Positions 5,151-54,460 of a DNA stretch of 64,000 nucleotides are shown piece after piece (position 1 is the first letter of the stretch; each line of letters starts with the position of its first letter). The stretch comes from a virus (lineage: Duplodnaviria > Heunggongvirae > Uroviricota > Caudoviricetes). The notes below the pieces were generated by a model. The model saw only the letters and a list, made by a program, of their open reading frames with translations. It ran no database searches and was not told where the DNA came from. The stretch is from IMG/VR virus record IMGVR_UViG_2778261574_000002; one strand, 5' to 3'. The translations under genes were made by a program, and so were the position numbers.

Positions 5151-5531
5151 CTACTCCGCAGAACCATACAATCTACGTAACGTGGCGGCGACAGTAGATA
5201 CAGATATCTCTCCGGTCGCAGCCCCTACGGTAAGGTCTACCAGTTCAGGGGAGTCAAATACCTGCACCCCGTTACGGCGTAGAAATAACAGCGCACTGTT
5301 TAGCGCGGTACGCTTATTGGCATCATTGAATATATGCCCTCTCGCTGTAGCCACCAGGTAGGTGGCGGAGACTTCGAAAAGGTCGGTGATCTCTTCGTAG
5401 GCAACTCTGGCCTGAACTCTCCCGATAATGGCCTCTGCCCTACCCGGATCAGACATTCCCGGCAGGCCGCCGTAGCGGCTTATATTCGCATCATGAAGCG
5501 CAACAAGTTCTTCCGGTGATATATGTCTCAT
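5151..5531 (-). CDS. doc: Doc toxin (Fic-family)
   Basis: 126 aa, [36 protein letters not shown].. recognised as P1 Doc; start overlaps the phd stop (ATGA). Confidence 0.95.
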
Positions 5532-5752
5532 TATCGGTTAACCAGTTCCTTGTTGGTGGAGTCCAGGGTGTCAAACAGGGATGCAAATTCAGCATCCAGC
5601 GCCGCTTTTTTGTAGGCTTCGAAAGTAGCCTTGCTGACAATTACTGCTGGCTCACGGCCTCTGCGGGTGATTTCAACCTCTTCCCCGGCTTCAACATTGT
5701 TGAGCACTTCAGAAAGGTTGCCACGCGCGGTACGGAAGTTAATGGATTGCAT
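5531..5752 (-). CDS. phd: Phd antitoxin
   Basis: 73 aa from [39 protein letters not shown]..; recognised as P1 Phd; the ORF-track start at 5758 adds two residues. Confidence 0.95.
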
Positions 5753-5760
5753 AAACACCT

Positions 5761-5783
5761 CGTGTACTCGTTATGTGTACACA
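5761..5783. promoter_or_regulatory. candidate Phd/Doc autoregulatory operator (GTGTAC palindromes)
   Basis: CGTGTACTCG..TGTGTACACA immediately upstream of phd. Confidence 0.45.
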
Positions 5784-5824
5784 ATTATAAACTTCACAGG
5801 CATAAAGCACCAGCACTTTGCAGC

Positions 5825-6214
5825 TTAAATAACCGGACAATCATCAAATTCCCCACTTCGGGCATCATTGATGACATGAGTGATCACACCAAAAACAGCA
5901 TTACTGCCCGTGTATCCATCGTCATCTACTGGTAACGCCTCTTTCTTCCCGGTGCTTAAGTCCTCCAGGTGCTGGCGCGGATACTTCCTGTATCTCTTTA
6001 TGCGATATTCACCCTCCATAGCGCACACAAGCAGAGAACCATCAACCGGAGTAAGCGAGGAATCAACCACCAGCAAAGCTCCCTGCAATATTCCCTCACG
6101 GTGATGGCTATCAGCTGCCCGCATGAAGTAGGTCGCTGAAGGATGTCTAATTATCTGCTGATCAAGAGAAATTCGGCTTTCAACATAATCCGCCGCAGGA
6201 GAAGGGAAGCCCAT
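5825..6214 (-). CDS. humD: UmuD-like S24 peptidase (HumD-like)
   Basis: 129 aa; LexA/UmuD-type C-terminal domain (..GDSM-like region, ..YRIKRY..); LexA box 20 bp upstream. Confidence 0.8.
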   Translation of the reverse strand: MGFPSPAADYVESRISLDQQIIRHPSATYFMRAADSHHREGILQGALLVVDSSLTPVDGSLLVCAMEGEYRIKRYRKYPRQHLEDLSTGKKEALPVDDDGYTGSNAVFGVITHVINDARSGEFDDCPVI

Positions 6215-6234
6215 AGCGTTTTACCTCAATGATA

Positions 6235-6250
6235 CTGTTTATTCATACAG
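6235..6250. promoter_or_regulatory. LexA (SOS) box
   Basis: CTGTTTATTCATACAG (CTG-N10-CAG), embedded in TACTG..CAGTA, upstream of humD. Confidence 0.7.
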
Positions 6251-6337
6251 TATACATTGAAAAGGCATAGTTTGTGAAAGCGGGGTTTGTAGGCGCGCCA
6301 CGCTGGGGGCTAATCACATTTCTCCCCCATCTTGCCG

Positions 6338-6589
6338 TTATTTTTTTGGTGCATCCTCGTTCTGATACACCGGATCGCTCCCTTTTGGCAACTGGAGGCT
6401 TAACTGCCGGTAGTGCCGTAGCCGTTCCATGAAATAGGCGCGCAGGTTTTCCGGTTGCTCACGGGCCACCTGCTCTGCAATCACAGGTATATTCAGCCGT
6501 TCTTTGTAAGCAACGCCGCTGGCGGCAAGGTCTACGTTCACCTTGTCTCGCTCTTCCTGGCTTTTAGCTGCTATATTTCGATCTGACAC
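6338..6589 (-). CDS. hot: homolog of DNA polymerase III theta subunit (Hot-like)
   Basis: 83 aa; [39 protein letters not shown] resembles HolE theta. Confidence 0.8.
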
Positions 6590-6621
6590 AAGAAACCTCC
6601 AGGAGTTAGTGGATCAGGCAC

Positions 6622-6972
6622 ATGCACAATAACGTTCTCAATGTTAGCCGTTCAATTCAGACAATCAGAGACTGCACCAGTGTGGTGGCATCAATCCCAT
6701 TGCGAAACAGCATAGACGAACTGCAAATTCGTGTATTGAATCCGAATCAGGCTAATAAGCAATTGCGCTTTATTTTGACGCTGAAAAGTGAAACAGAGGG
6801 GATAAAGCACAGCGTAAAAGTGTTTTCTGAGGCCATTCTGCTTAATGGGAAGCTCCGGCATCTGGTAAGGCCAGAACGTCAATATCCTGACGTCCTGGCG
6901 CGTGAAAAAGACCTTCTTTCTGAAGTTCAGGATAGGGTGATCGATTTCGTCAAATGCTATCCCCTGCATTGA
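6622..6972 (+). CDS. hypothetical protein (strand assignment ambiguous)
   Basis: 116-aa ORF fully overlapping a 92-aa minus-strand ORF (6691-6969); + ORF has the more protein-like composition but a weak ribosome-binding site. Confidence 0.25.
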   Translation: MHNNVLNVSRSIQTIRDCTSVVASIPLRNSIDELQIRVLNPNQANKQLRFILTLKSETEGIKHSVKVFSEAILLNGKLRHLVRPERQYPDVLAREKDLLSEVQDRVIDFVKCYPLH

Positions 6973-7241
6973 GGGCAGGTGTTCCCTTCCGCAAAGTAGG
7001 GAAAATTGCTATCAAGTTCATCACACCATCTGCGATGGTCGTAGCACCAAAACGCCTCCCACGGTGCACGGAAATACTTCATCCACCAGGACACTCGATC
7101 AGGTATATCTGCTGGTGGCAGTTCTTCTGGCAATAATTTGCCTGATAATTCCCTTTCCGCCCGCGACAGCATTTTTTTGAGGCTCGCGTTCTCTTTTTCA
7201 AGCTCATCTACGCGCACCTGTAATTCAGCTTTCGTTGGCAT
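6957..7241 (-). CDS. hypothetical coiled-coil protein
   Basis: Internal start MPTKAELQVRVDELEKENASLKK with AGGTGG ribosome-binding site; overlaps the stop of the upstream gene. Confidence 0.4.
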   Translation of the reverse strand: MPTKAELQVRVDELEKENASLKKMLSRAERELSGKLLPEELPPADIPDRVSWWMKYFRAPWEAFWCYDHRRWCDELDSNFPYFAEGNTCPQCRG

Positions 7242-7875
7242 GGTCCACCTCATGCTTTTCAGCCACCAGCGGCAATAAAGCCCTGGCCATCTTATGAACC
7301 AATAGTGCATCAATAATGCCAAGCGTATGCCCCGGCTTAATGTTTAATGCCGCCTCAAGGCGACACCTTTCCAGGCCACTTTTCTCGGCTTGTTTATGAT
7401 GATCTGGTGTAATAACGTCGCCCAAAACACGGCTTATTCTTTCTCGTAATTGCTGGGTGCCAGCACACTTGATCGCTGTATCGTGGAGACGGTTAACCAG
7501 TTCGCGATAAACATGCGGCTTAATTCGGATACGTTCACCGGTGACGCCCTTTCCTGGTGCTGGCACCGAACTATCCGGAATATCCGGATAGTTGCCAGCC
7601 TCGTAAGCTACCCGCAGCCAGTGCATGAATGTTTCAGTGGACACACAACCACAGTCCACATCGATTTTCCCGCGTTGCTGTTCCAGCCAATGCTCAAAAT
7701 TCAATCTACACGTATTACTTTCATGTTGCTCTTTTTGTCTCAAGGCCAGCATCTGCTGGGCTATTTCCAATACTTCATCTGCCGTATATCCAGCACCGTG
7801 ACCATACATTTCGATACGGGAAATAATCTCTGATATGCGCTCTTCAGTGATTCTGGTCATTTCTTTTTGCGCCAT
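7225..7875 (-). CDS. hypothetical protein, 216 aa
   Basis: Long ORF on the operon strand; no recognisable motif. Confidence 0.5.
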   Translation of the reverse strand: MAQKEMTRITEERISEIISRIEMYGHGAGYTADEVLEIAQQMLALRQKEQHESNTCRLNFEHWLEQQRGKIDVDCGCVSTETFMHWLRVAYEAGNYPDIPDSSVPAPGKGVTGERIRIKPHVYRELVNRLHDTAIKCAGTQQLRERISRVLGDVITPDHHKQAEKSGLERCRLEAALNIKPGHTLGIIDALLVHKMARALLPLVAEKHEVDHANES

Positions 7876-8231
7876 TTCTTTTCACATTCCTTAGTCCATT
7901 TTTCAATGTTCATTTTGGCAATATCAGTCATTCCATCACCTAAGAAATACTTTTTCCGGTACGTCTTGCACTTAAACCACACTACAACAGCCACCAACCA
8001 GAAAATAAAAGGCCATACAGCAATACCAACTCCAGCCGCGATAAAGCCCAATAGCCATAAATGAAGCTCTCCAACTTCTGTTTGCGGCAATATTCTTAAA
8101 GAATTAAACAGCAGACTGAAGGAATGGTCGTATGCATTGGCGGTATAAGACATGCAATCCATATAATTAAAGTCATAGCCTGCGGCTGCCGCCCATAATG
8201 GGCGGTCAAGAAAATGTTTTAGTGTCATCAT
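7857..8231 (-). CDS. hypothetical membrane protein
   Basis: 124 aa; hydrophobic stretch LWLLGFIAAGVGIAVWPFIFWLVAVVVWF; AT-rich coding sequence. Confidence 0.45.
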   Translation of the reverse strand: MMTLKHFLDRPLWAAAAGYDFNYMDCMSYTANAYDHSFSLLFNSLRILPQTEVGELHLWLLGFIAAGVGIAVWPFIFWLVAVVVWFKCKTYRKKYFLGDGMTDIAKMNIEKWTKECEKKWRKKK

Positions 8232-8237
8232 ATAAAT

Positions 8238-8627
8238 TTAAGGTTCAGACCAGTTATCTTCAATAGCAATGCTTAATCTTTGTAGCCATTCTGCTAATTT
8301 CAGCATTGCTTCTCTTTCGCTTAAACCACGAGGAAAATCATCAAGCGAAATTGTTGGCTTGAAGCCCCCGTAATTATCCATTTCAACAGTCAGATTTTGC
8401 TCCAGCACGGTATTCCTTACGCGGCTATTGTGCCGAAGCAAATATACTGAACGTGATTTATTGGTTTTATGGTCAAACTGATATTCGGTAAGTATCATCT
8501 GGCTTTTGCCATGACTATTACCTCTCCACATACCTACCTCACTTAATAAAACAACTCCATGCGTAGTTGATGATTTTTTCCTACGTAATATAAATCTGCA
8601 CTCCGGCAGTAAAACCAAAGCCAACAA
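8238..8627 (-). CDS. hypothetical protein
   Basis: 129-aa ORF, start uncertain; AT-rich. Confidence 0.4.
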   Translation of the reverse strand: MLALVLLPECRFILRRKKSSTTHGVVLLSEVGMWRGNSHGKSQMILTEYQFDHKTNKSRSVYLLRHNSRVRNTVLEQNLTVEMDNYGGFKPTISLDDFPRGLSEREAMLKLAEWLQRLSIAIEDNWSEP

Positions 8628-8709
8628 TTGCTGAAAAAATCAAAACATTTACTTTTGACATTATAAATTTTCTCTCGGTGTCGTAGGTGATAGCACCATA
8701 ATTGATAAT

Positions 8710-8961
8710 TTAGTGAGTTAGCAGTTCCATTTTTTGGATGATTTCCGCATGAGCATCATCGTTATCAACACTTAACTCGTTTAATGCCTCTCGCACCACA
8801 TCAACTTCTTCTGGTTGGAAGAAATCATCTCGGTAGTCACCAAATAGAACCGAAACAAGCCTGCCACCAGCAACATCAAGATTGGCGCTAACAGGTGGCT
8901 CTTTGCCATCCTCAAATTCGACTACAAAAGTTATTTTTCCCATCGTTACCACCAGCGACAA
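8710..8961 (-). CDS. small acidic hypothetical protein
   Basis: ~80 aa (MGKITFVVEFEDGKEPP..). Confidence 0.4.
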   Translation of the reverse strand: MSLVVTMGKITFVVEFEDGKEPPVSANLDVAGGRLVSVLFGDYRDDFFQPEEVDVVREALNELSVDNDDAHAEIIQKMELLTH

Positions 8962-9028
8962 ATTGAATACAAACCCAGTGCTGCCGCCATCACAATTCCT
9001 ACCGTTGCGAATGCTTCAGGCCAGCTCG

Positions 9029-9361
9029 TTATCTCACCTCCAGTCTCCATACCGCCTGACCAATCCGGCTGGCATGGGTATCTTTGGATACTGTTCCGTC
9101 TTTAGCCATCTCCATAAGAATTTTGCGCAAATCTGCCGAACGCCATTCTTCATCAGGAAATTCCTTCTCCATTGCCAACCGCAGATTCCAGGTTGCCATC
9201 CTGAATGGATATTCCCCGCCGAGAGCTTTATCTTGCAGGGCAGCCCGGGAACGCATCACCTGCAAAACCTTCTCTTTTACATTCATCATTTCGCCTCCTG
9301 CGGCGGTTCTGGTAGCGGCATCCAGTGTGACGGTTTCCACGACGCACCAGGAATTATCCAA
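9029..9361 (-). CDS. hypothetical protein
   Basis: 110-aa ORF; overlaps the 3' end of the upstream gene. Confidence 0.4.
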   Translation of the reverse strand: MDNSWCVVETVTLDAATRTAAGGEMMNVKEKVLQVMRSRAALQDKALGGEYPFRMATWNLRLAMEKEFPDEEWRSADLRKILMEMAKDGTVSKDTHASRIGQAVWRLEVR

Positions 9362-10401
9362 CCATCATTAGCGTCAGGATACCCCGGTATGTAAGTCGCC
9401 CATTTCATTCGCCAGTCACCTTTCCTATCAAACTCCCTGGCAACAAGAACGGCTGTTTTGCTATCCGGCATTCGCTCACTACAGCTTATCCAACCATCCG
9501 GAGTTACCGGAACTTGCGGAATGGCTGTCTGCTCTCGAACGTCATTAGGCGCTATAGGTTCTGCTGCCAACTGACTGGCATATTTGTTAATGGTAACGAT
9601 AAGCTCTTGCTCGGCCTCATCCAGACAATCACCGATACCTCGCCTGTCACCGTCAAAATCATCGAAATCGGCACGAATCTTGGCAACCTCCTGGATTGCG
9701 GACAACACTTCACCAGGAATAAGCCGAGAGTTGCCCGATAGTGCATTCTGCTCCAGTGATGCTTTTACAAACCACGCTGCCTGAACTATAACGCCATGAA
9801 TCCAGCGCAAATCAGCATCGCGATCTTTCTTTTTCATCTTTTCGCCACTTAAGGCCTTGCTTATGTGGCTGCGTACCAGGTCTTCATGTAATTCCTTCGC
9901 CTCCTCAATGGTGAAACCACCAGGCAGAAGAGCCGGAGTTACCGGAGAGCTGGTTGACGCTTCCGGGATTTCCCGAAAATTATTGGTTGACGAATTCTTG
10001 CTTTCCCGAAAGTTTCCGGACTGAAGCATGGCGGTGCGGCAGGCGTTCCATATTTCGGCAGCAATATCGCGCTCGCTATCGGTTAATTTGTACGTGGAAA
10101 CATAGCCAGAGAGCATTTCTACGTTTTCCGGAGTTGCTTCTTCCGGCACTACCGGCGCTGGCGGGGCGATGCGTCCAAGCAACTTATTTACCTCTTTCGC
10201 CATCGCGTCATATTTATCTAAATGGCGATTAGCTTCTAAGCAGACTCGGCGCATCTGATCTGAGTTAACTCGTTTAACTGGATCTGCTTCCAGCGATGCC
10301 AGCGCAATCCGTGCCAGTTCCATTTGTTCACCACGGGTAAGCCCGTTTTCAAGCGGATTTTTAATGAACAATTCAATACGTTCTTTGGTAATAGTGGTCA
10401 T
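9286..10401 (-). CDS. hypothetical protein with DUF551-like C-terminus
   Basis: 371 aa; C-terminal ..WKPSHWMPLPEPP; shares an internal module (APPxPVVPEE..WNACRxAMLQ) with the 11114-11509 product. Confidence 0.55.
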   Translation of the reverse strand: MTTITKERIELFIKNPLENGLTRGEQMELARIALASLEADPVKRVNSDQMRRVCLEANRHLDKYDAMAKEVNKLLGRIAPPAPVVPEEATPENVEMLSGYVSTYKLTDSERDIAAEIWNACRTAMLQSGNFRESKNSSTNNFREIPEASTSSPVTPALLPGGFTIEEAKELHEDLVRSHISKALSGEKMKKKDRDADLRWIHGVIVQAAWFVKASLEQNALSGNSRLIPGEVLSAIQEVAKIRADFDDFDGDRRGIGDCLDEAEQELIVTINKYASQLAAEPIAPNDVREQTAIPQVPVTPDGWISCSERMPDSKTAVLVAREFDRKGDWRMKWATYIPGYPDANDGWIIPGASWKPSHWMPLPEPPQEAK

Positions 10402-10411
10402 GTGTTACTCC

Positions 10412-10675
10412 TTAACCCGCAGTGCTTTCAACTGATGAGGGGAACAAAATCTTTTCATCAAACCCTGCATTCATATCATGAACAGCAACACACCAATCCA
10501 TCGACGAACGATTATCAAGAGCCTCCATGATTTCATCCATGCGGCGTAGGTCATACAGGTAAATGCTTTTATCGCCAATGGTGTAAAAGCCAATTTTTTT
10601 CGGTGATGGACAGCGATCAAGAACTTCCTGTAATTCGTTCAACCATGCCCGTTCTTTTTTTGTCAAAGTTGCCAT
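10412..10675 (-). CDS. hypothetical protein
   Basis: 87 aa from MATLTKKERAWLNELQ with AAGGAAAA ribosome-binding site; starts 1 nt after the upstream stop. Confidence 0.45.
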   Translation of the reverse strand: MATLTKKERAWLNELQEVLDRCPSPKKIGFYTIGDKSIYLYDLRRMDEIMEALDNRSSMDWCVAVHDMNAGFDEKILFPSSVESTAG

Positions 10676-10676
10676 A

Positions 10677-10895
10677 TCAGTTTTCCTTATACGGATTAAT
10701 TTTATTGTGCAGTGTGTTGAACGACGCCCATACCACGTCGTTATACAATTCAATAACTGGTTCAATTATTTTCCCGATTGCCCAGACAAAAATTAGCGGG
10801 GATATCGGTATCATCAACACGATAAACAGAATGAGAAACAAAAGTTCTGTCGCTCTACTTTTTCGCGGATATTCTTTTCTGAATAATGTAGGCAC
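10677..10895 (-). CDS. small membrane protein (GTG start)
   Basis: 72 aa; hydrophobic LLFLILFIVLMIPISPLIFVWAIG; preceded by AAAGGAGAGTGAT. Confidence 0.4.
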   Translation of the reverse strand: MPTLFRKEYPRKSRATELLFLILFIVLMIPISPLIFVWAIGKIIEPVIELYNDVVWASFNTLHNKINPYKEN

Positions 10896-10896
10896 A

Positions 10897-11112
10897 TCAC
10901 TCTCCTTTGTTGCTTCTCAAAATTTTATGCCCTGGCGCAAAAGCACGCGTTTTGTCGACGCTTATTCGCCACCCATCTTTACGTGCCTCTTTTGCACAGC
11001 CAGCCCATGACGTACCGATATACTCACCGAAGTCTGGCACTGGATATACACCTTCCGTACACTGGCGGCAGTCACAATAGAGATGCATGGTGTAACTTGC
11101 GGCAATAGCCAT
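10897..11112 (-). CDS. Cys-rich hypothetical protein
   Basis: 71 aa from MAIAASYTMHLYCDCRQCTEG; preceded by the recurring AAAGGAGAGTGAT junction. Confidence 0.45.
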   Translation of the reverse strand: MAIAASYTMHLYCDCRQCTEGVYPVPDFGEYIGTSWAGCAKEARKDGWRISVDKTRAFAPGHKILRSNKGE

Positions 11113-11113
11113 A

Positions 11114-11509
11114 TCACTCTCCTTTACCCTGAAGCATGGCGGCGCGGCAGGCATTCCAGCCTCTCACCTCTGCAATAGCGGCAACAGCATCGACCGCGTA
11201 CATTTTAAGAGGGTTAGGCATTGGTTTTTCTTCAGGTACTACTGGCACTGGAGGGGCGGCATAAACAGGAATAACGTCCGCTTGCTCTTTATTACTTTCA
11301 TCCGTTAAAGCCCAGAATAATTTCCCGGCCGGATGTTTGAAAATATAAGCAACTGGTTCTGCGCTATCAGCTTCGCGCCGCTTCTGTAGCTCTGCTGCCA
11401 TTGCTCTCACGACTTCAACTGGTGCCCTTGCAGCAAACTCTATGTTGGTGATCAGCTCATTAAGATATTGCTCGCTGGGATACTGTTTCTTATTGGTAAT
11501 AGTGATCAT
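11114..11509 (-). CDS. hypothetical protein
   Basis: 131 aa; ATG overlaps the upstream stop (ATGA); shares a module with the 9286-10401 product. Confidence 0.5.
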   Translation of the reverse strand: MITITNKKQYPSEQYLNELITNIEFAARAPVEVVRAMAAELQKRREADSAEPVAYIFKHPAGKLFWALTDESNKEQADVIPVYAAPPVPVVPEEKPMPNPLKMYAVDAVAAIAEVRGWNACRAAMLQGKGE

Positions 11510-12021
11510 GCCGCGTTTCCTTCTTTCTTATTAACAATTACACCGTCATATATTTCATTAAGGTGCCCTCTCAACTCCATGCGCCTTAATGCAGATAACA
11601 TGTAATCGCATTCAACCTGCTTATTCCCGGTAAATGGCTTATCGTCAGGATTACCCCAACAGCAATTACCCGTGGGCCATCCATGTACTTTCCGTACTCT
11701 TCCGTTAACAACGTGAAGTAATCCCCAGCCGGGAGGTAAATCCTCAATTGAAATAATTCCCGGCTCACTAATAAAGAATCGCCAGTCGCCCATGCCAAGT
11801 GAGGGATTTTTACGGAAACGCTTTTTTCTATCTGCCAACAAGTCAGCACGAGAACACTTCGCCTCTATCAGGCATGATGCTGAATTTCTGAATCCCATAG
11901 CATCTGGCTGTTCTCCGGTACTGGTTACAGCAACAAAGCGGTCATGAAAGCAAACCTTGAACCCGTTGCGCTTAAGGAACTTGTACGCAATCTGACAGAG
12001 TTCGTGGTGTGTTAACGCCAT
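11506..12021 (-). CDS. PD-(D/E)xK nuclease-like protein
   Basis: 171 aa from MALTHHELCQIAYKF; D..EAK motif (..DAMGF..CLIEAKCS..); preceded by AAAGGAGAGTGAT. Confidence 0.5.
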   Translation of the reverse strand: MALTHHELCQIAYKFLKRNGFKVCFHDRFVAVTSTGEQPDAMGFRNSASCLIEAKCSRADLLADRKKRFRKNPSLGMGDWRFFISEPGIISIEDLPPGWGLLHVVNGRVRKVHGWPTGNCCWGNPDDKPFTGNKQVECDYMLSALRRMELRGHLNEIYDGVIVNKKEGNAA

Positions 12022-12022
12022 A

Positions 12023-12583
12023 TCACTCTCCTTTGATGCGAATGCCAGCGGCGCGGGAATCATTCCATCGCTTTACTTCTTCACGAATTACGTCAATGCA
12101 TTCTTTCGAATCCATTAGGTAATCTTCATCAAAAAGACGTTCCTGTTCGTTTTCTATCGCAACAATGATTGCTTCAACTAACTTTTGTTCCTGAGAATCA
12201 CTTTCTAACTCTGCTATGCGCTTACTCCCATCCGAGATAACACCTTCGTAATATTCACGCTGTTCGTTGAGTTTTGATTTTGTCTCCTCAAGCTCAACGC
12301 GCAGCTTCCCTACCGTTAGCGCAATATCCTCGTTCTCCTGGTCGCGGCGTTTTATGTATTGCTGGTTTCTTTCCCGTTCATCCAGAAGCGCCAAGACGGT
12401 AGCCGGATTGGCTGCGGCGATGAATTCAGCATCACGAGATTCGTTTTCACTGAACACCATAGCTATTTGCTCATGGTTTATGCCGTCAGTGGAGTAAATC
12501 TCATCGTCGAATTCAACAGCCCACTTACCTTTCGTAGCCTTCTCTGCCGCCTCACGCAGTGCCTGATAGTCAATCTTGCTCAC
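12023..12583 (-). CDS. Ea22-like protein (paralog 1)
   Basis: GTG start after AAAGGAGG, overlapping the upstream TGA; N-terminal ..SKIDYQALREAAEKATKG and AEFIAAANPATVLALL motifs. Confidence 0.5.
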   Translation of the reverse strand: MSKIDYQALREAAEKATKGKWAVEFDDEIYSTDGINHEQIAMVFSENESRDAEFIAAANPATVLALLDERERNQQYIKRRDQENEDIALTVGKLRVELEETKSKLNEQREYYEGVISDGSKRIAELESDSQEQKLVEAIIVAIENEQERLFDEDYLMDSKECIDVIREEVKRWNDSRAAGIRIKGE

Positions 12584-13281
12584 TGGTTGCCTCCTTTGCG
12601 AATCTGTTCCGCCCATTCTTCAAGGGATTTCTCCGCATATTCACCGGACAGGCCATCAATCGGGTACGGTTCATTAGCCAACTCTTCTTTCGCTGACAGA
12701 ATCATGCGCGTAACGTCGAAAACTTCACGCAAAGACTTATTGATAAATCCGTGATTGAACGCAGCAGCAAGACGGCTGGCGGTATAGTTAATCCCCTCGT
12801 TGCGTGCTTCCGCACGAATTTCAGCCAGAAAAGCATCGGTAGCTGGAGTTTCGCTGTGGTGTAGGGCATCGTTGATAATCATTGCAGCAACTCCGGCCTG
12901 CCCTGCATCCGTGACCGACACATGATCAAGAGTTACAGCCATTGCGTGTTTCAGCCCAGCGTTCTCTGCCACCAGAGCCGCGAGCTTAGTCTCAAGCGGT
13001 GCTATTCGGCACATAGCATCAATATTTGTGTCCTCCAGGCGCTTAATTTCACCAAGTAGCTCCAGTGCAACCTTTGGGTTGAATGCGGCAATATAACGAG
13101 CGTTGTTCTCTGCGTTTTTCAGTCCATCAAAGCCGGTCCATTTGATAACGTCTTCACATCGTTTATCACCGGGCGTATGCACCGCATACGTACCAGTACC
13201 CGGCGAAATAAATGCGACCCATTCGCCCTGTGTTGCCTGTTTTGCTATCTCACGCAGTGCCCGGTAATTAATTTCGCTCAC
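12580..13281 (-). CDS. Ea22-like protein (paralog 2)
   Basis: GTG start after AAAGGAGG, overlapping the upstream TGA; ..SEINYRALREIAKQATQG and ARYIAAFNPKVALELL motifs. Confidence 0.5.
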   Translation of the reverse strand: MSEINYRALREIAKQATQGEWVAFISPGTGTYAVHTPGDKRCEDVIKWTGFDGLKNAENNARYIAAFNPKVALELLGEIKRLEDTNIDAMCRIAPLETKLAALVAENAGLKHAMAVTLDHVSVTDAGQAGVAAMIINDALHHSETPATDAFLAEIRAEARNEGINYTASRLAAAFNHGFINKSLREVFDVTRMILSAKEELANEPYPIDGLSGEYAEKSLEEWAEQIRKGGNQ

Positions 13282-13517
13282 TGGCTGCCTCCTTTGCGGA
13301 GTTGCGCTTCGATGCACGAAAAAAAAGACTCCCGAGTATGACTGTTAAGAGCTGGTGCGAACGCCGCGTTAAGAACGGCAGCATCACAGCCGTCATCAAT
13401 ATAGAGCGCAATTTTTTTCTCCAGGCGCGCTTTGGCTTGCTGCAACTGCATACCCCGGCACGCACGCGGGATATAATCAGCAATTTGAGCGATAGCTTTT
13501 TCGTTCTGTTTAAACAT
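13278..13517 (-). CDS. hypothetical protein
   Basis: 79 aa; C-terminus ..QLRKGGSQ encodes the next gene's ribosome-binding site. Confidence 0.45.
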   Translation of the reverse strand: MFKQNEKAIAQIADYIPRACRGMQLQQAKARLEKKIALYIDDGCDAAVLNAAFAPALNSHTRESFFSCIEAQLRKGGSQ

Positions 13518-13713
13518 GCTTCACCTCGATAGGCTTGATGGTGTCTAACAGCAGTCGACGGCGCGTATTTTCTGCAAAGTGGCGGCGTCCGGTATCTTTG
13601 TGGTAAAACTCATTTTTGCCGACGACCCACATCCGCTCTGTTTGGTGCAGTTTTTTTACCTGCGGCCCGTCTTTGGTGATCACGGTGCCGGTATGGGTTT
13701 TTACGATTGTCAT
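13510..13713 (-). CDS. hypothetical protein
   Basis: 67-aa ORF on the operon strand. Confidence 0.4.
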   Translation of the reverse strand: MTIVKTHTGTVITKDGPQVKKLHQTERMWVVGKNEFYHKDTGRRHFAENTRRRLLLDTIKPIEVKHV

Positions 13714-13796
13714 GCCACTACCTCTTCGAACAGATGAACGAGACAGGCCGATGTTCGTCCACCTGAAAAACTGACGATTTGATGCATACTCACGGT

Positions 13797-14525
13797 TTAT
13801 TCCTGAATGCGCTTAAACTCGATTACCCACACCCAGGGATTAGCGTTCCAGCTTTCTTCACCATAGATGGATTCCCACAGGCGCTGGAACGCAACCTTGG
13901 CCATTGCGAAATCCCCCTTGGGAGTAAGGAATGTTCCCGGGTGATCAGGAAGCAAACTTCCAGCAGGCGGAACGCCCTCAGCCCTTGCATCGCATTCGCT
14001 GATATCGTTCAACCGTTCAACGCGCACGTTGGTAATTTCCAACAGAATGCGTGATGCCCATCGCGGCATGTGAATTGATGGACGCCACCCACCATCAAAC
14101 TTTTCATTCACAGTGTGAGGTTTCCAGTCGGCATCATCGGGTATCGACCATAAGCCGTAATCACCAGGTTTTTGCTCGCAACTGGCCCGATAAATCCTTG
14201 CTGCGTTCTTCTCATCGCCACGACAAAGGTTGTCGTTCCAGTCCACACTGCAACCATCCTCATTGCCTAATATCGCCCATGTTTCACGAACCCAAATTCG
14301 ATCGCCGACGATACCAAATGGGCAATTGAAAACACTGCTTACACCATCAGCCCCGTACCACTGAAAACCTGCACCAATTTTTCTAACCATCACTGGTGCT
14401 TCTGGACCAACTTCCGCAGGCTGATTTTTCATTATCCGCCGCGTCTGCGTTTTCCTTCCTTCGAGGATGGCCCGGACCATCTCATCGTTAAAAATCATGC
14501 CGCGCTCTTTCACTTCGCCTTTCAT
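13797..14525 (-). CDS. ASCH-domain-like protein
   Basis: 242 aa; N-terminal MIFNDEMVRAILEGRKTQTRR resembles the ASCH fold signature. Confidence 0.5.
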   Translation of the reverse strand: MKGEVKERGMIFNDEMVRAILEGRKTQTRRIMKNQPAEVGPEAPVMVRKIGAGFQWYGADGVSSVFNCPFGIVGDRIWVRETWAILGNEDGCSVDWNDNLCRGDEKNAARIYRASCEQKPGDYGLWSIPDDADWKPHTVNEKFDGGWRPSIHMPRWASRILLEITNVRVERLNDISECDARAEGVPPAGSLLPDHPGTFLTPKGDFAMAKVAFQRLWESIYGEESWNANPWVWVIEFKRIQE

Positions 14526-14649
14526 GCATCCCCCTTACCCATGTGCGACGATGCCGCCAAAAGTGATAGAGAACAGCCAGAAATAGATCGCGGCCATAAT
14601 GATTTTGAATGCCGTGTTCATATTTTCAGCTCCTGTGATTGATTGGATA

Positions 14650-14703: not shown

Positions 14704-14720
14704 AGATTTATTAGAGCAAT
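14704..14720 (-). promoter_or_regulatory. C1 operator-like 17-mer (16/17)
   Basis: AGATTTATTAGAGCAAT on the + strand. Confidence 0.55.
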
Positions 14721-51189: not shown

Positions 51190-51400
51190 AACAACCTGCT
51201 ACCCGCTGTCAAACAGGTGGCAGGACGTGACAGGGTTGACAGACTGGCGATTGTGAAACCAGCAGGCCGAAGCCTCCCCATCACGCCCCACCATAATTTG
51301 GGCGTAACGCGGTTTAACGGACACAAAAATACCGCAATATCGGAAATCTGCGGTTGTCCGCACAATCATTCAGGCTGTCAAACCTGGTCGCAGAATTTGC
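51190..51400 (-). ncRNA. candidate C4-type antisense RNA region
   Basis: Leader between operator and icd with GCTGTCAAAC at 51205-51214 and 51374-51383 and a near-complementary GTTGACAG at 51235-51242. Confidence 0.35.
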
Positions 51401-51479
51401 TACGACGGCGGAACTATAAGCCTGAACGATTAAAAGGTCAATATGATGCGAAAAGATAGCATTCGTGACTTAAAAATAC

Positions 51480-51496
51480 AAATTTATTAGAGCATT
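51480..51496 (-). promoter_or_regulatory. C1 operator-like 17-mer (16/17)
   Basis: AAATTTATTAGAGCATT on +; upstream of the antirepressor operon. Confidence 0.6.
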
Positions 51497-51592
51497 GTTT
51501 GTTTAATAAATGCACAATTGGATCTAATAACCTCTTTTTTTTAAAGGCGAAAATATGTACCCTAAATGAGTTATAAGGCAGGTGAGGTTATA

Positions 51593-52084
51593 ATGAGAAA
51601 ACTATTACTACCGTTATTATTTATGGCTGGGACTGTTAATGCAGCATCAAGCGTAAAGGAGATTTGTACCGATTATACGAAATACCTTGGGCACGTTTAC
51701 GGATTTGCTGTCAGTGAAGACGAATCCATGCGCAAGAAGTTACTGTCAGATATGAAGCGCCTTAAACTTTCTGAAGCGATGGTGCAGCAGGAACTGTATA
51801 AAGTCTCAACCAACGCAAATGCTAAATACCAATATTCTCGCCTATTAAACCCCGATGCAAATGAGATCAATCGAAGCACTTTCGATTATATGGTAAAGGC
51901 ATGCGAAACCGCTCCTGATTTTGCTATCCCTAGCTGGGGTGTGCTGGTGGCGAGCAATGCCGTTAATAAAGAAGATGTTGGAAGAAATGGCATTGACTCA
52001 ATCAGAAATGCCCCAGGAATGCGCCATCAAAACGTGCAGGGTACGCTTGAAGAACGAGCCAGGGGGCCGGGTGTAGCTCCATAA
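51593..52084 (+). CDS. exported protein with Sit-mimicking C-terminal tail
   Basis: 163 aa from MRKLLLPLLFMAGTVNA (signal peptide) after GGTGAGG; C-terminus ..GIDSIRNAPGMRHQNVQGTLEERARGPG. Confidence 0.55.
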   Translation: MRKLLLPLLFMAGTVNAASSVKEICTDYTKYLGHVYGFAVSEDESMRKKLLSDMKRLKLSEAMVQQELYKVSTNANAKYQYSRLLNPDANEINRSTFDYMVKACETAPDFAIPSWGVLVASNAVNKEDVGRNGIDSIRNAPGMRHQNVQGTLEERARGPGVAP

Positions 52085-52172
52085 TTTAATGAATAATATT
52101 AAATTCTCTGGGCATAGTGGATCTAACAATATGGACTATGCCTATAATATCTAAAACAAAAAGGATAAAAAT

Positions 52173-52679
52173 ATGAAATTATATAAGTCATTGTATAGCT
52201 TTTTATTAATGTCCTCTTTTCTGCCATTATCAGCAATGGCAGGTTCTACCGTTTGGACGGTAGGAGGTGAGCAAGGGTGGAGAGAAATCTCTGCAACCAA
52301 TGACGATGGTTATACAATTAACTTTTCTTGTGATGCTGGAGCAAGGGAAGGTTCAGAAGATCATATCGCTGGAAGAAATTTGTATGTAAGCGGAGGAAAA
52401 GAGAATGCCGATTTTTCTACACGCGACACAATATCACGTAAAGCAGATGTAATTACTTTAATTGTTGGCCCGGATAGTTTTAATATTGGCACGCAAAACA
52501 CTGCTCCTAATCGTAGGGAATGGTATTCATTTTGGAAGGCAGTGTCATCTACAAATGAAAAAAACATAGATGTATATATCGGTTCGAGTCGAATCACATC
52601 ATTCACTCTGGATGGTATTTCCAGTATTTATACAGAAGCTAAAAATGACGGGTGTTTAAAACAAGATGACGGTGAATAA
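52173..52679 (+). CDS. exported hypothetical protein
   Basis: 168 aa; signal peptide MKLYKSLYSFLLMSSFLPLSAMA; AT-rich. Confidence 0.55.
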   Translation: MKLYKSLYSFLLMSSFLPLSAMAGSTVWTVGGEQGWREISATNDDGYTINFSCDAGAREGSEDHIAGRNLYVSGGKENADFSTRDTISRKADVITLIVGPDSFNIGTQNTAPNRREWYSFWKAVSSTNEKNIDVYIGSSRITSFTLDGISSIYTEAKNDGCLKQDDGE

Positions 52680-53739
52680 AGTGAAGGATATTAAACACAT
52701 TTCGCTTAACTCTAATAATAAAGCTGAAGGCACTGCCTTTTATGATTATTTAAATGAAATTAAAGGAGTGAGGCATAAAAAGATAAGTGGTTTATTAAAT
52801 TCAGAATATATTTACAAGAGTTTAGTTAAACAGTTTGGAACAGTTAAAAAACAAGAATTAATTAATGATTGTTTTCGAAAAGAACTTGAGTCTTTACCAA
52901 AAGTTACGAGAATTGCACACCAGTTTCGTGAACAAATGGTATTTTTACAGAAACAGTATCAGGCGGCTTTTCCCAGTGATGCAAATGAGCATATTCAAAT
53001 AATTAAAAATCAAGCTGAAATGGCTATGCCGTTACGAAAACACTCAGAAGCCATTAATAAGATAGCTGGCTTAAATAATATGGAGGAGGTATTTAAAGAA
53101 TTACACTCTAATATAAATTACAAAATTAAGATAAGCAAAGATATTAAAGAAATAATAAAGCAGTATAATAAAACAAGAAGTGTATTATTAGAGCAAGTAG
53201 TAGAGCTTGGGCTTGTTACTATCGCGCAGGCTTATGCTAATGATTCTATAAAATCAGCGCATACCGAAAGTGAGCATCAAAACAAAGGATTTAATAAATC
53301 TAGTTCGACGTTTTTTGATTCATTTAAGGCGCTTCCTTCTCCTATTCAGATCTTCCTTCTGTGGATTTTTTATCAAGTGGTGCTTGGCGCTATAACTGAT
53401 TATGCAAAAGAAAAGACATTATCGCAAATTTACAAGATGGAATCATATCTTCTATCTCTAAATGAGGATAAGCCAATATCTAAGCAAAAGCTAACACAAG
53501 AAAATAAAGATATTCAGTGGGAGGATCTTAATAATTTTAGAGCTATAACAGGTGATAACGTAAGGTTGCATGTCGGCCCTTCTTTAAATAGTGAAGTGAT
53601 TGAATGCATTGGCAAAAACACAATTGTTGCTATTTTAGATAAGAAAGATCGTCAATGGCTTTACGTGCAGGTTAAATCAGGGGATGAGTTTATTACTGGT
53701 TGGATTACACGAACATACACAAAGCCTCTTAAGGCTTGA
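52666..53739 (+). CDS. membrane protein with C-terminal SH3b-like domain
   Basis: 357-aa ORF (start uncertain, ATG 52666 or GTG ~52681); hydrophobic IQIFLLWIFYQVVLGAI; C-terminal ..RLHVGPSLNSEVIECIGKNTIVAILDKKDRQWLYVQV... Confidence 0.45.
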   Translation: MTVNKVKDIKHISLNSNNKAEGTAFYDYLNEIKGVRHKKISGLLNSEYIYKSLVKQFGTVKKQELINDCFRKELESLPKVTRIAHQFREQMVFLQKQYQAAFPSDANEHIQIIKNQAEMAMPLRKHSEAINKIAGLNNMEEVFKELHSNINYKIKISKDIKEIIKQYNKTRSVLLEQVVELGLVTIAQAYANDSIKSAHTESEHQNKGFNKSSSTFFDSFKALPSPIQIFLLWIFYQVVLGAITDYAKEKTLSQIYKMESYLLSLNEDKPISKQKLTQENKDIQWEDLNNFRAITGDNVRLHVGPSLNSEVIECIGKNTIVAILDKKDRQWLYVQVKSGDEFITGWITRTYTKPLKA

Positions 53740-53839
53740 ATTTTATCTCCGCATCTTCGGATTGGGTGTTGATGACGATGTGCTACTTGAAGCACTTGAG
53801 TTGTTTTAACGTAGTATCTGAAATGTGTAGACTGACCGG

Positions 53840-53862
53840 TAACAAATGACAACTCGTAGAAT
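53840..53862 (+). promoter_or_regulatory. late-promoter-like motif
   Basis: TAACAAATGACAACTCGTAGAAT upstream of the tail operon. Confidence 0.5.
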
Positions 53863-53869
53863 CGGTTAA

Positions 53870-54460
<591 letters not shown>

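Follow-up and report, generated by a model that had tools for sequence, protein, structure and literature searches.

Genomic Setting of the AT-Rich Island

Three short genes encoding a membrane protein (A) and two small soluble proteins (B and C), with two extra hydrophobic micro-ORFs in the intergenic gaps, form an AT-rich island in the window, the 64,000-nt stretch of DNA analyzed here (table 1). Judged from its sequence, the window is a P1-like phage-plasmid: the P1 gene order is kept (doc, phd, humD, hot, pap, pmgS), and the nearest DNA is that of Punavirus SJ46, vB_EcoM-813R1, and RCS47 and of hundreds of E. coli plasmids, 90–100 kb. A, B, and C lie on the minus strand in a long gene array bounded by pap and hot, all ORFs of which share that strand. 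The C1 repressor operator Op88 is situated directly downstream of pap and, in the P1 annotation, overlaps the sigma-70 promoters P1/P2pmgT; it is presumed to control the whole minus-strand array, including the island.

Table 1. Coordinates in the window of the island genes, micro-ORFs, and associated features
Feature	Coordinates	Strand	Basis or description
Gene A, membrane protein, 124 aa	7857..8231	-	ORF; phrog_2638, E=3e-63, whole profile covered
Gene B, soluble, 97 aa	8238..8531	-	phrog_1258, E=3e-49, whole profile covered
Micro-ORF t (mini40)	8539..8661	-	ORF; alignment with six relatives; annotated J46_0090 in SJ46
Gene C, soluble, 77 aa	8710..8943	-	phrog_3876, E=6e-53, whole profile covered
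Micro-ORF s (mini27)	8946..9029	-	In relatives, MSWPEAF then hydrophobic helix, 24–27 aa
Downstream gene, 216 aa	7225..7875	-	Start (ATG at 7875) overlaps A 3′ end by 19 nt
Block without counterpart in reference P1	7606..13831	-	6.2 kb; blastn of window versus P1
C1 repressor operator	14704..14720	-	Identical to P1 OpmgT (Op88); window sequence ATTGCTCTAATAAATCT

By blastn, the 6.2-kb block without a P1 counterpart corresponds to one breakpoint in P1, at coordinate 85182 within pmgT. The island is the promoter-distal portion of this block, the remainder consisting of lambdoid ea/nin-type cassettes (genes with domain matches to DUF551 and DUF4014, and several hypothetical ORFs). In the partly homologous, mosaic array of pMB5646_3, RefSeq gives ead/Ea22-like and DUF1382 family genes, and positions 9030–10000 of the window share 98% identity with Stx2a prophages. 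The phd–doc pair of the element is found at 5151–5758, outside the island.

The 216-aa gene downstream of A keeps its 5′ end among relatives, but in some its body has been exchanged, indicating a recombination junction at the downstream edge of the island. Divergence of RHB20-C18 plasmid 3 from the window begins immediately past the A stop codon. The pmgT–humD interval of P1-like elements has been described as "highly variable region 8," variable regions having been tied to low GC (PMC9603915), and the P1 genes from pmgO to doc are, where tested, non-essential (PMC10695390). The published region resembles the island in its site (between pap/Op88 and hot), its variability, its link to low GC, and the dispensability of the tested P1 genes. 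That account is a gene presence/absence survey, however, in which the three families and the micro-ORFs are unnamed, and it is silent on the extra genes being lambdoid or N15-type early cassettes.

Base Composition and Gene Limits

The original prediction described one membrane protein and two small soluble proteins of lower GC than their neighbors in an otherwise uniform operon. The protein types are as described, A having a 31-residue hydrophobic stretch and B and C none. The compositional contrast also persisted when computed: 7857–8961 has a GC content of 39.5% compared with 47.5% for the whole window, and lies below the 49–50% range of its flanks (0.490 for 5151–7856 and 0.499 for 8962–10401). 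Measured against all 1105-nt segments of the window (SD 0.032), the island has a z score of about -2.5, and the 2.9% of segments that are as GC-poor occur only in the island zone, at 51.2–54.4 kb, and at 57.2–58.5 kb. GC3 is likewise low, at 0.42, 0.36, and 0.33 for A, B, and C versus 0.45–0.55 in most neighbors, so the low GC is not due to amino-acid composition alone. The surrounding operon, in contrast, is not uniform, since a second low-GC gene pair (~40% GC) occupies 10412–10895 and the array is mosaic throughout.

Family alignments, PHROG profiles, Shine–Dalgarno sites, and RefSeq calls place the start of B at 8531 and that of C at 8943, making the TTG starts at 8627 and 8961 wrong. The low-GC block is real, but its proposed end at 8961 is therefore too far by 18 nt.

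Protein Families Encoded in the Island

Protein A comprises an acidic N-terminal domain of 55 aa in which the motif TLKHFxDxPxWAAAAGYDFNxxDC is conserved, an uncharged hydrophobic stretch of 31 residues (56–86, from hydropathy and charge) with WPF at its center, and a strongly basic tail containing 14 K/R in 38 aa. The family is rare, yielding 16 clusters in a search of 5.8 billion proteins and 36 representatives in an exhaustive HMM search of 1.84 billion, all 36 belonging to phrog_2638 and none having a Pfam domain.

Protein B has a predicted fold of a four-strand beta meander followed by a long C-terminal helix, the latter end carrying the nearly invariant motif DFPxGLSERExMLKLAxWLxRL..IEDNW. 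Protein C is very acidic (18 D/E, 23%; net charge -12); its first 40 residues are conserved (MGKxTFVVEFEDGKEPPV...GGR...DYRDD) and its C-terminal half is variable. Both B and C present strongly conserved short surfaces next to variable remainders.

The profile searches proposed in the original prediction matched only PHROG families, phrog_2638, phrog_1258, and phrog_3876, all annotated "unknown function." No function could be assigned to the island proteins from Pfam, NCBIfam, PADLOC, PDB sequence, or fold searches. With a cutoff of E<=0.1, PADLOC-DB 2.0 matched none of A, B, and C and none of five neighboring proteins, and PDB profile searches with three family alignments (A1, A2, and A4) returned nothing below E=0.2. 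A literature search on the RefSeq accessions and on the PHROG ids retrieved no paper.

Ratios of nonsynonymous to synonymous variants in P1-like elements are 0.27 for A (27 haplotypes), 0.12 for B, and 0.11 for C, clearly pointing to purifying selection on all three genes. Intact full-length homologs of A, B, and C with 50–70% identity occur in other genera.

Two Micro-ORFs Disabled in the Window

In relatives, mini40 specifies a 40-aa peptide, MSKVNVLIFSAIVGFGFTAGVQIYI[T/A]WEKIINYAWSCFIK, with a single hydrophobic helix and a stop codon 7 nt ahead of the B start. In the window, codon 27 has changed from TGG to TAG (position 8582), leaving 26 codons (8581–8661). A stop codon was present in none of 59 IMG/VR copies (one of them partly aligned), and the TAG allele in none of 156 matching records from complete E. 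coli genomes. The variant ratio of mini40 is 0.89, and hence no constraint on the peptide sequence is demonstrated.

The second micro-ORF, mini27, is preceded by the Shine–Dalgarno sequence GGAGGTGA; its start codon shares bases with the stop of the upstream phrog_2814 gene (TAATG), and it terminates 2 nt ahead of the C start. The start codon in the window is ACG (position 9028), and the sole remaining in-frame ATG, at 9050, is poorly placed. Among the IMG/VR copies, 50 of 56 have a Met start and six have lost it; in the SJ46-type allele, 9 nt are missing in frame and the hydrophobic segment is divergent. No full-length 61-nt match identical to the window was seen among the matches listed from complete E. 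coli genomes.

Each micro-ORF carries its own disabling mutation, private to the window. Compared with pMB5646_3, the window has three differences in 4.1 kb, two of which disable mini40 (nonsense) and mini27 (start loss). Such a double knock-out has P ~ 4e-5 under random substitution, a value computed post hoc.

Distribution and Mosaicism

Based on pacA, 561 (~10%) of the 5426 complete genomes of E. coli contain a P1-like element. Some part of the island is present in 323 complete genomes and 80% or more in 203, the complete island being carried by 203 of the 561 pacA-positive genomes (~36%). It is missing from P1, P7, JL22, and 673R5, and is not universally conserved in the phage family. Neither of the two conditions set to refute the original prediction, GC in the range of the flanking genes and universal conservation, therefore applies. 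Partial blocks also exist (A+B, A alone, or B alone), and the island junctions coincide with gene boundaries, giving mosaic edges. In plasmid pCUVET17-1010.2, A is deleted or frameshifted and the plasmid is otherwise intact; the L725 plasmid has a truncated C. Only short, chance-level repeats were found at or in the island, and insertion by an IS or MITE was rejected.

The order s-C-t-B-A was found in 56 of 80 A-centered loci of P1-like elements, a dominance for which functional linkage, instead of recent shared ancestry, could be responsible. In the loci examined beyond P1-like elements, the three genes were met only apart, in lambdoid and N15-like early operons. Homologs of A occupy nin regions or N15-like operons, in the latter between a small wHTH-like ORF and Dam. 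At four divergent loci (L007, L009, L018, and L019), A is in delayed-early operons, located either in nin regions or past the Q antiterminator, and neither between late genes nor beside immunity genes. B is 67% identical over its full 97 aa to gp43 of Klebsiella phage phiKO2 (phrog_1258), which is encoded in an N15-like linear plasmid prophage, immediately after a Dam methylase gene, whereas B resides in a P1-like backbone; the GC3 of the two genes also differs (0.59 for gp43 versus 0.36 for B). Salmonella phage F1055 has a B homolog in its early-left operon, and Mulock has one in its nin region. In lambdoid or P22-like prophages, C homologs occupy the far end of the early-left operon, immediately upstream of xis–int; of 14 divergent IMG/VR loci, 9 have an integrase downstream.

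A three-gene system was considered and rejected, the other two families not having been found at the examined loci with homologs less than 70% identical (BLAST for L007, L009, and the phiKO2 locus; gene and Pfam tables for the other loci). That A, B, and C did not travel together at the divergent loci examined outside P1-like elements argues against a multigene system.

Transcription and RNA Signals

The island genes are co-oriented and tightly packed, with a 19-nt overlap between A and the next gene, some gaps of just 2–7 nt, and AT-rich gaps of 48 and ~85 nt. The overlap makes a terminator at the A 3′ end impossible. A simple and crude consensus scan identified no sigma-70-like promoter on the minus strand of 7857–9050, and a similar scan no terminator-like hairpin in or just past the island on this strand, promoter- and terminator-like sites being no commoner in the scanned region than in shuffled sequence and promoter-like ones fewer. 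A perfect TATAAT is present at 8661–8666, without a -35 element, and a weak or non-canonical promoter may still lie in the AT-rich gaps. Sequence scans of the island detected no P1 late-promoter box, C1 operator, or LexA box.

Between Op88 and the island, the coding strand has two weak promoter-like sites (11370–11342 and 9686–9658) and one weak terminator-like hairpin (9738–9724), none of these commoner than in shuffled sequence. The island is downstream of Op88, on the same strand, and separated from it by only that one weak hairpin, a placement consistent with membership of the C1-controlled Op88/pmgT operon. Because the operator is identical to OpmgT/Op88, the array behind it is predicted to be repressed in the lysogen. 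An Rfam scan of 6000–11000 returned nothing but a chance miRNA match and no antitoxin RNA, and folding of the 8525–8715 RNA gave no stable structure (z=-0.24).

Origin and Probable Role

The island is probably not one system but a stack of early-gene cassettes, comprising A, B, C, and the two micro-ORFs, each non-essential and mobile independently of the others. The cassettes would have entered the P1-like backbone via recombination with lambdoid or N15-like phages. The P1 annotation and the signals absent from the simple consensus scans suggest that they would be transcribed by read-through of ~6 kb from the C1-repressed pmgT promoter, in which case the products would be made early after infection or induction and not in a stable lysogen. 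These products would work singly in early lytic development, A being membrane-anchored with its basic tail in the cytoplasm and B and C being small soluble binders of host or defense proteins. The acidity of C would suit a role as a nucleic-acid mimic or protein inhibitor, the DNA-mimic idea being drawn from charge alone. By analogy with the positionally analogous lambdoid exo-xis genes, the likely effect would be a tuning of host takeover, of the lysis–lysogeny choice, or of counter-defense; those genes, which are expressed early and can be dispensed with, modulate both lysogenization and induction (PMC3824215, PMC7093339, PMC8614690).

The lambdoid exo-xis ("ea") and nin genes are, like the island cassettes, small, non-essential, delayed-early, and mosaic. 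C homologs are found at the ea position beside xis and A and B homologs in nin or early-right operons, and the array in the window itself has the DUF551 and DUF4014 genes and the Stx2a-prophage-like segment. In contrast to the lambdoid genes, which are expressed from N- or Q-antiterminated PL/PR, the island is set in a P1-like backbone under C1/Op88, and none of the A, B, and C families is among the ea genes studied (ea8.5, ea22, orf60a, orf61, orf63, and orf73).

Morons, in the definition after Juhala/Hendrix 2000, are additional genes that form autonomous units in the genomes of temperate phages. The original prediction read the island as an acquired moron, and its atypical composition, accessory distribution, and mosaic edges bear out the acquired, accessory part of that view. 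Its distinct composition, its presence or absence between conserved flanks, and its dispensability are features shared with morons. The island differs in having no recognizable promoter or terminator of its own, in its tight packing and A overlap, and in being embedded in a presumably repressor-controlled early operon behind the C1 operator, all of which leave an autonomous, prophage-expressed unit unsupported. We conclude that these are acquired accessory cassettes; a classical moron, or a toxin or defense module, is not supported.

It is nonetheless possible, if unlikely, that the island acts in lysogenic conversion as a classical moron, with a weak promoter of its own driving expression in the plasmid prophage and A, possibly aided by the micro-peptides, blocking the entry of superinfecting DNA or triggering abortive infection. 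Morons typically have low GC and a patchy distribution, and the two AT-rich gaps might conceal a promoter. Small size, membrane location, and a basic cytoplasmic tail, as in A, are the general build of several exclusion proteins, for example HK97 gp15 and T4 Imm. The known superinfection-exclusion proteins P1 Sim, T4 Imm/Sp, and HK97 gp15 are, like A, small phage-encoded inner-membrane proteins, but no sequence relationship to A and no PADLOC match were detected, and the context of A is delayed-early, not prophage-expressed. Lysogenic conversion is further opposed by the lack of a coding-strand promoter- or terminator-like site in the island, by the overlap of A with the downstream gene, which precludes a terminator, by the position of the array behind the C1 operator, by the delayed-early location of A homologs at the four divergent loci, and by the deletion of A in at least one otherwise intact plasmid. 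The exclusion, abortive-infection, or toxin-immunity functions that had been proposed for the island found no positive evidence, with no PADLOC, Pfam, or NCBIfam match, although single island genes may still have one of them.

An equally doubtful reading is that B, C, or both inhibit host immunity early, for instance with acidic C as a restriction-blocking DNA mimic, and that A is unrelated cargo. Small size, position in an early operon, the acidity of C, and the conserved short surfaces of B and C beside variable remainders would all fit this role, as would the Dam-type or other DNA methylase genes in or beside operons containing A, B, and C homologs. The proteins have no sequence or fold likeness to any solved anti-restriction or anti-CRISPR protein, however, and the AF2 model of C has no match among known mimics. 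Charge alone is weak evidence and methylases are common in such regions regardless. Early inhibition of host immunity also overlaps with the cassette explanation rather than excluding it.

A more speculative combination, which we regard as quite improbable, is that A and the 27-aa and 40-aa micro-proteins form an early small membrane set, either harmful to the cell or acting as an exclusion or membrane-remodeling device, with B and/or C as new-fold partners or counter-defense factors and the two private knock-outs recording selection against micro-ORF expression. If true, mini27 and mini40 would be an uncharacterized class of phage-plasmid micro-toxins.

Toxin-immunity or toxin–antitoxin function, in which one or more of A, mini40, and mini27 would be membrane toxins neutralized by a neighboring soluble protein or an antisense RNA, appears very unlikely. 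In its favor, the three hydrophobic ORFs alternate with the two soluble ones, and the mini40 and mini27 knock-outs, given their post hoc P value, would fit counter-selection of toxic peptides. Against this, no toxin or antitoxin family was matched in Pfam, NCBIfam, or PADLOC, and the mini40 polymorphism looks neutral. The features of a type II system are lacking in that there are no toxin or antitoxin domains (Pfam, NCBIfam) and no own promoter, and those of a type I system in that there is no antitoxin RNA family (Rfam, 6000–11000) and no structured RNA by mini40. The element already has phd–doc nearby, and at the loci examined outside P1-like elements the genes were not found together.

The view that the island is decaying junk, non-functional ORF remnants that are becoming AT-rich by drift at a recombination hot spot, is hardly credible: function is unassigned and lesions are known (in A of pCUVET17-1010.2, in C of the L725 plasmid, and in the micro-ORFs of the window), but the variant ratios of 0.11–0.27 for A, B, and C, though not that of mini40, and the intact homologs in other genera contradict it.

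Significance

As a stack of early-gene cassettes, the island adds three conserved, cheaply testable ORFan families, one membrane and two soluble. The finding is descriptive and offers no new mechanism, so its value lies in a candidate list for anti-defense, host-takeover, and exclusion screens. Clinical and animal E. coli commonly carry P1-like phage-plasmids, which move resistance genes and take in cargo at their variable regions. A hot spot filled from lambdoid, Stx-type, and N15-like early cassettes would represent gene flow between integrated prophages and phage-plasmids.

Base composition and coding content

DNA matches identify the sequence around the island (7857-8961, minus strand) as P1-like phage-plasmid (Punavirus), the stretch matching Salmonella phage SJ46 at 95-97.5%, Escherichia phage vB_EcoM-813R1 at 99.2%, and also RCS47. 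Plasmid relatives number in the hundreds among E. coli and Salmonella and are non-mobilizable elements of 90-100 kb, the best being pMB5646_3 (99.9%). The minus-strand gene order is that of P1, namely pmgS, pap, an array of small genes, hot, humD, phd, doc, pdcB, lpa and pacA, with the island lying in the array.

The island has a GC content of 39.5%, well under both immediate flanks (49.0% and 49.9%) and the window mean of 47.5% (standard deviation 3.2 points for 1,105-nt windows). Only 2.9% of such windows are equally low, all of them in the island zone, at 51.2-54.4 kb or at 57.2-58.5 kb. Third-position GC is also low in the membrane protein gene A (0.42) and the soluble protein genes B (0.36) and C (0.33) compared with 0.45-0.55 in most neighbors, so amino-acid usage does not by itself account for the dip. 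A second low-GC gene pair lies upstream of the island (table), showing the array to be a patchwork of cassettes differing in composition, so the operon outside the island lacks the uniformity that had been proposed.

Features of the island, the surrounding array and the most AT-rich zone of the window
Feature	Position	Strand	Description
A	7857-8231	-	124 aa; single uncharged hydrophobic stretch of 31 residues
B	8238-8531	-	97 aa; without hydrophobic segment; start corrected
mini40	8539-8661	-	in relatives a 40-aa peptide with one hydrophobic helix; annotated in SJ46
C	8710-8943	-	77 aa; without hydrophobic segment; start corrected
mini27	8946-9029	-	in relatives 27 aa, MSWPEAF then hydrophobic helix; strong Shine-Dalgarno GGAGGTGA
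Second low-GC pair	10412-10895	-	~40% GC; phrog_1714 gene (87 aa) and DUF4014 gene (72 aa); smaller dip than island
First array ORF	14535-14621	-	28-aa hydrophobic peptide MNTAFKIIMAAIYFWLFSITFGGIVAHG; GGAG ribosome-binding site
C1 operator OpmgT	14704-14720	-	17 nt identical to that of P1, same position
Most AT-rich zone	51200-54400	+	39% GC overall; one 1,105-nt window at the 31.9% minimum, near 52.5 kb

The most AT-rich zone follows closely on a C1 operator (51480-51496) and precedes pmgC-like and tail-tube genes. Three proteins are encoded there, one of 172 aa (phrog_3933) with a weak PTP likeness that falls short of the Pfam cut-off, one of 168 aa (phrog_3429) and one of 357 aa (phrog_7086) with a C-terminal SH3_3 domain, and none of them had a match in PADLOC. 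From the P1 map, this zone may be the position of sim.

The predicted content of one membrane and two small soluble proteins matches the genes found, with corrected starts for the latter two. The ratios of nonsynonymous to synonymous variants per site among P1-like copies are 0.27 (A), 0.12 (B) and 0.11 (C), indicating that all three are real genes under purifying selection. Protein A begins with a conserved acidic domain of ~55 residues bearing the motif TLKHFxDxPxWAAAAGYDFNxxDC, followed by a D/ExEVRELP motif, the hydrophobic stretch with a central WPF, and a highly basic tail (14 K/R in 38 residues), which the positive-inside rule places in the cytoplasm in the predicted topology. The stretch may cross the membrane once, leaving the N-terminal domain periplasmic, or may form a hairpin. 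None of the three proteins had a match in Pfam, NCBIfam or PADLOC, and PDB profile searches were also negative.

Distribution and mosaic structure

The P1 packaging gene pacA is present in 561 of 5,426 complete E. coli genomes, as compared with 323 having some part of the island and 203 having 80% or more of its length. Of the phage records that contain pacA, only SJ46 and 813R1 have the whole island, RCS47 and three "P1" assemblies have A and B without the remainder, and P1, P7, JL22 and 673R5 have no part of it. A and B together, B alone and A alone are all found as separate sub-blocks. This distribution and the GC difference from both flanks uphold the original prediction of an acquired, accessory and compositionally atypical island, and neither of the two outcomes named beforehand as refuting it (GC within the range of the flanking genes, universal conservation in the phage family) was obtained. 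A survey of 77 P1-like elements designated pmgT-humD "highly variable region 8" and tied variable regions to low GC (PMC9603915), and in a CRISPRi survey of P1 all tested genes from pmgO to doc were non-essential (PMC10695390).

The island is the promoter-distal part of 6.2 kb of DNA (7606-13831) that is extra relative to P1. Both flanks of this block meet at P1 coordinate 85182 inside pmgT, so that P1 pmgT corresponds to the two block ends joined, and the sequence suggests that P1 may be a deletion derivative rather than the present element an insertion derivative. P1 pmgT resembles a fusion of the 5' part of a 242-aa ORF (13797-14525, labelled ASCH-domain by RefSeq in pMB5646_3) and the 3' part of a 216-aa gene (7225-7875), between which the array sits.

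No flanking repeats pointing to a transposable element were found around the island. An alignment of seven copies places the junctions at gene boundaries, the upstream neighbor switching at ~9045 and the body of the downstream gene right after the A stop. One of these copies, the E. coli L725 plasmid (locus L015), has a truncated C and, inserted exactly between B and A, an extra and very hydrophobic 54-codon ORF (1942-2106), and in another plasmid A has lost 128 nt. In two lambdoid prophages (L010, 5348-5530; L012, 4700-4819), unrelated small hydrophobic ORFs were also observed near C homologues, and such early regions seem to be filled repeatedly by small membrane peptides. The array also holds DUF551 and DUF4014 genes, and RefSeq labels Ea22-like and DUF1382 genes in the partly homologous array of pMB5646_3. 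Positions 9030-10000 (minus strand) comprise a phrog_2814 "eaa" gene and the 3' part of the DUF551 gene. Their 98% identity to more than 100 Stx2a-converting prophages is direct evidence that lambdoid Stx phages and the P1-like plasmid have recently exchanged DNA.

Homologues in other temperate phages

The A family (phrog_2638) is rare, forming 16 clusters when grouped at 90% identity and having 36 representatives in a set of 1.84 billion proteins. Its homologues (51-60% identity) are found in N15/phiKO2-like early-right operons comprising repressor, Q-like antiterminator, RdgC, exonuclease, a small wHTH-like ORF, A, Dam and DinI, and in lambdoid nin regions, either after O/P or between Dam and NinG. 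B (phrog_1258) occurs widely in prophages of Klebsiella, Citrobacter, Salmonella, Raoultella and Erwinia; it corresponds to phiKO2 gp43, directly after the Dam methylase gp42, and is also represented in Klebsiella phage Mulock (nin region) and Salmonella phage F1055 (early-left operon). C (phrog_3876) occurs in prophages of Enterobacter, Citrobacter and relatives, where it closes the early-left operon and xis-int follow immediately; of 14 divergent IMG/VR loci, 9 have an integrase 0.3-1.6 kb downstream. The native niches of all three are delayed-early accessory regions of temperate enterobacterial phages.

An A or B homologue adjoins and overlaps a Dam-type methylase gene in two N15-like loci (L007, 5001-5995; L009, 5001-6001) and phiKO2 (locus L003, 3989-4962). 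In three lambdoid loci, L018 and L019 (A) and L010 (C), the operon also includes a methylase gene at a distance of a few genes. These neighbors may be the usual content of nin-type regions.

No two of the families occurred together in the examined loci with divergent homologues (by BLAST in three loci, otherwise from gene tables), which indicates that the island is a stack of independent cassettes rather than a conserved multi-gene system.

Transcription

In the P1 annotation, σ70 promoters P1/P2pmgT lie directly after pap, overlap the C1 operator OpmgT (former Op88) and precede pmgT, pmgU, pmgV, upfM, upfN and upfO, then hot. From the operator to hot, all sizeable ORFs of the window are minus-strand and closely packed; the B stop lies 6 nt from the A start, and the A end overlaps the next gene start by 19 nt. 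On the coding strand of the island, scans for σ70-like promoters, intrinsic terminators, P1 late-promoter boxes, C1 operators and LexA boxes were all negative. Composition and patchy presence agree with the proposal of a moron, but the island has neither its own promoter nor its own terminator by these scans and the term is not supported in the strict sense. On the simplest reading, the island genes would be read through from the C1-repressed pmgT promoter, expressed early after infection or induction and silent in the lysogen.

The first array ORF follows directly on the Op88 operator and a hairpin that is conserved. Its DNA is conserved but unannotated in reference P1, and SJ46 has a small "membrane protein" gene annotated at the corresponding position.

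Two micro-ORFs altered in the window

Two hydrophobic micro-ORFs, mini27 and mini40, occupy gaps between the island genes. The start of mini27 and the upstream gene's stop overlap (TAATG), and only 2 nt separate the mini27 end from the C start; in relatives, mini40 ends at a distance of 7 nt from the B start. In the window, mini27 has ACG in place of ATG (position 9028) and mini40 carries a nonsense change at codon 27 (TGG to TAG, position 8582). These two lesions and a synonymous change at 7435 are the only differences from pMB5646_3 over 5.5-9.6 kb (~4.1 kb), and the chance that at least two of three random substitutions would disable both micro-ORFs, calculated post hoc, is ~4e-5. None of the 156 matching records from complete E. 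coli genomes has the TAG allele, no ACG allele was seen among the full-length E. coli matches listed (none being identical to the window), and neither allele is present among 56-59 IMG/VR copies. The mini27 start codon is also missing in six IMG/VR copies, and mini40 polymorphism looks neutral (ratio 0.89). Sequencing error may be the source, and we regard the two lesions as a lead, not a result.

Possible roles

Most plausibly the cassettes came from lambdoid and N15-like phages, and their products would be made early, from PpmgT, each acting by itself in early lytic development. The likeness to exo-xis and nin genes is one of position; those genes are dispensable and, where studied, modulate lysogenization, induction and host physiology (PMC3824215, PMC7093339, PMC8614690). 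The small soluble proteins, above all C, are as reasonable candidates for counter-defence as for such modulation, and A is likewise a reasonable candidate for a membrane-level role, for example in membrane targeting or in exclusion while the lytic cycle runs. The analysis gave no positive evidence for the exclusion, abortive-infection or toxin-immunity functions first suggested for the island, which would be conjectural. We consider the structural, evolutionary and regulatory account of the island to be somewhat favored, and any specific biochemical role for A, B or C to be far less probable. The hot spot is already published, the families are listed in catalogues but have not been characterised, and early accessory regions of temperate phages typically have this architecture; the main use of the island is as a source of three conserved ORFan candidates for functional screens.
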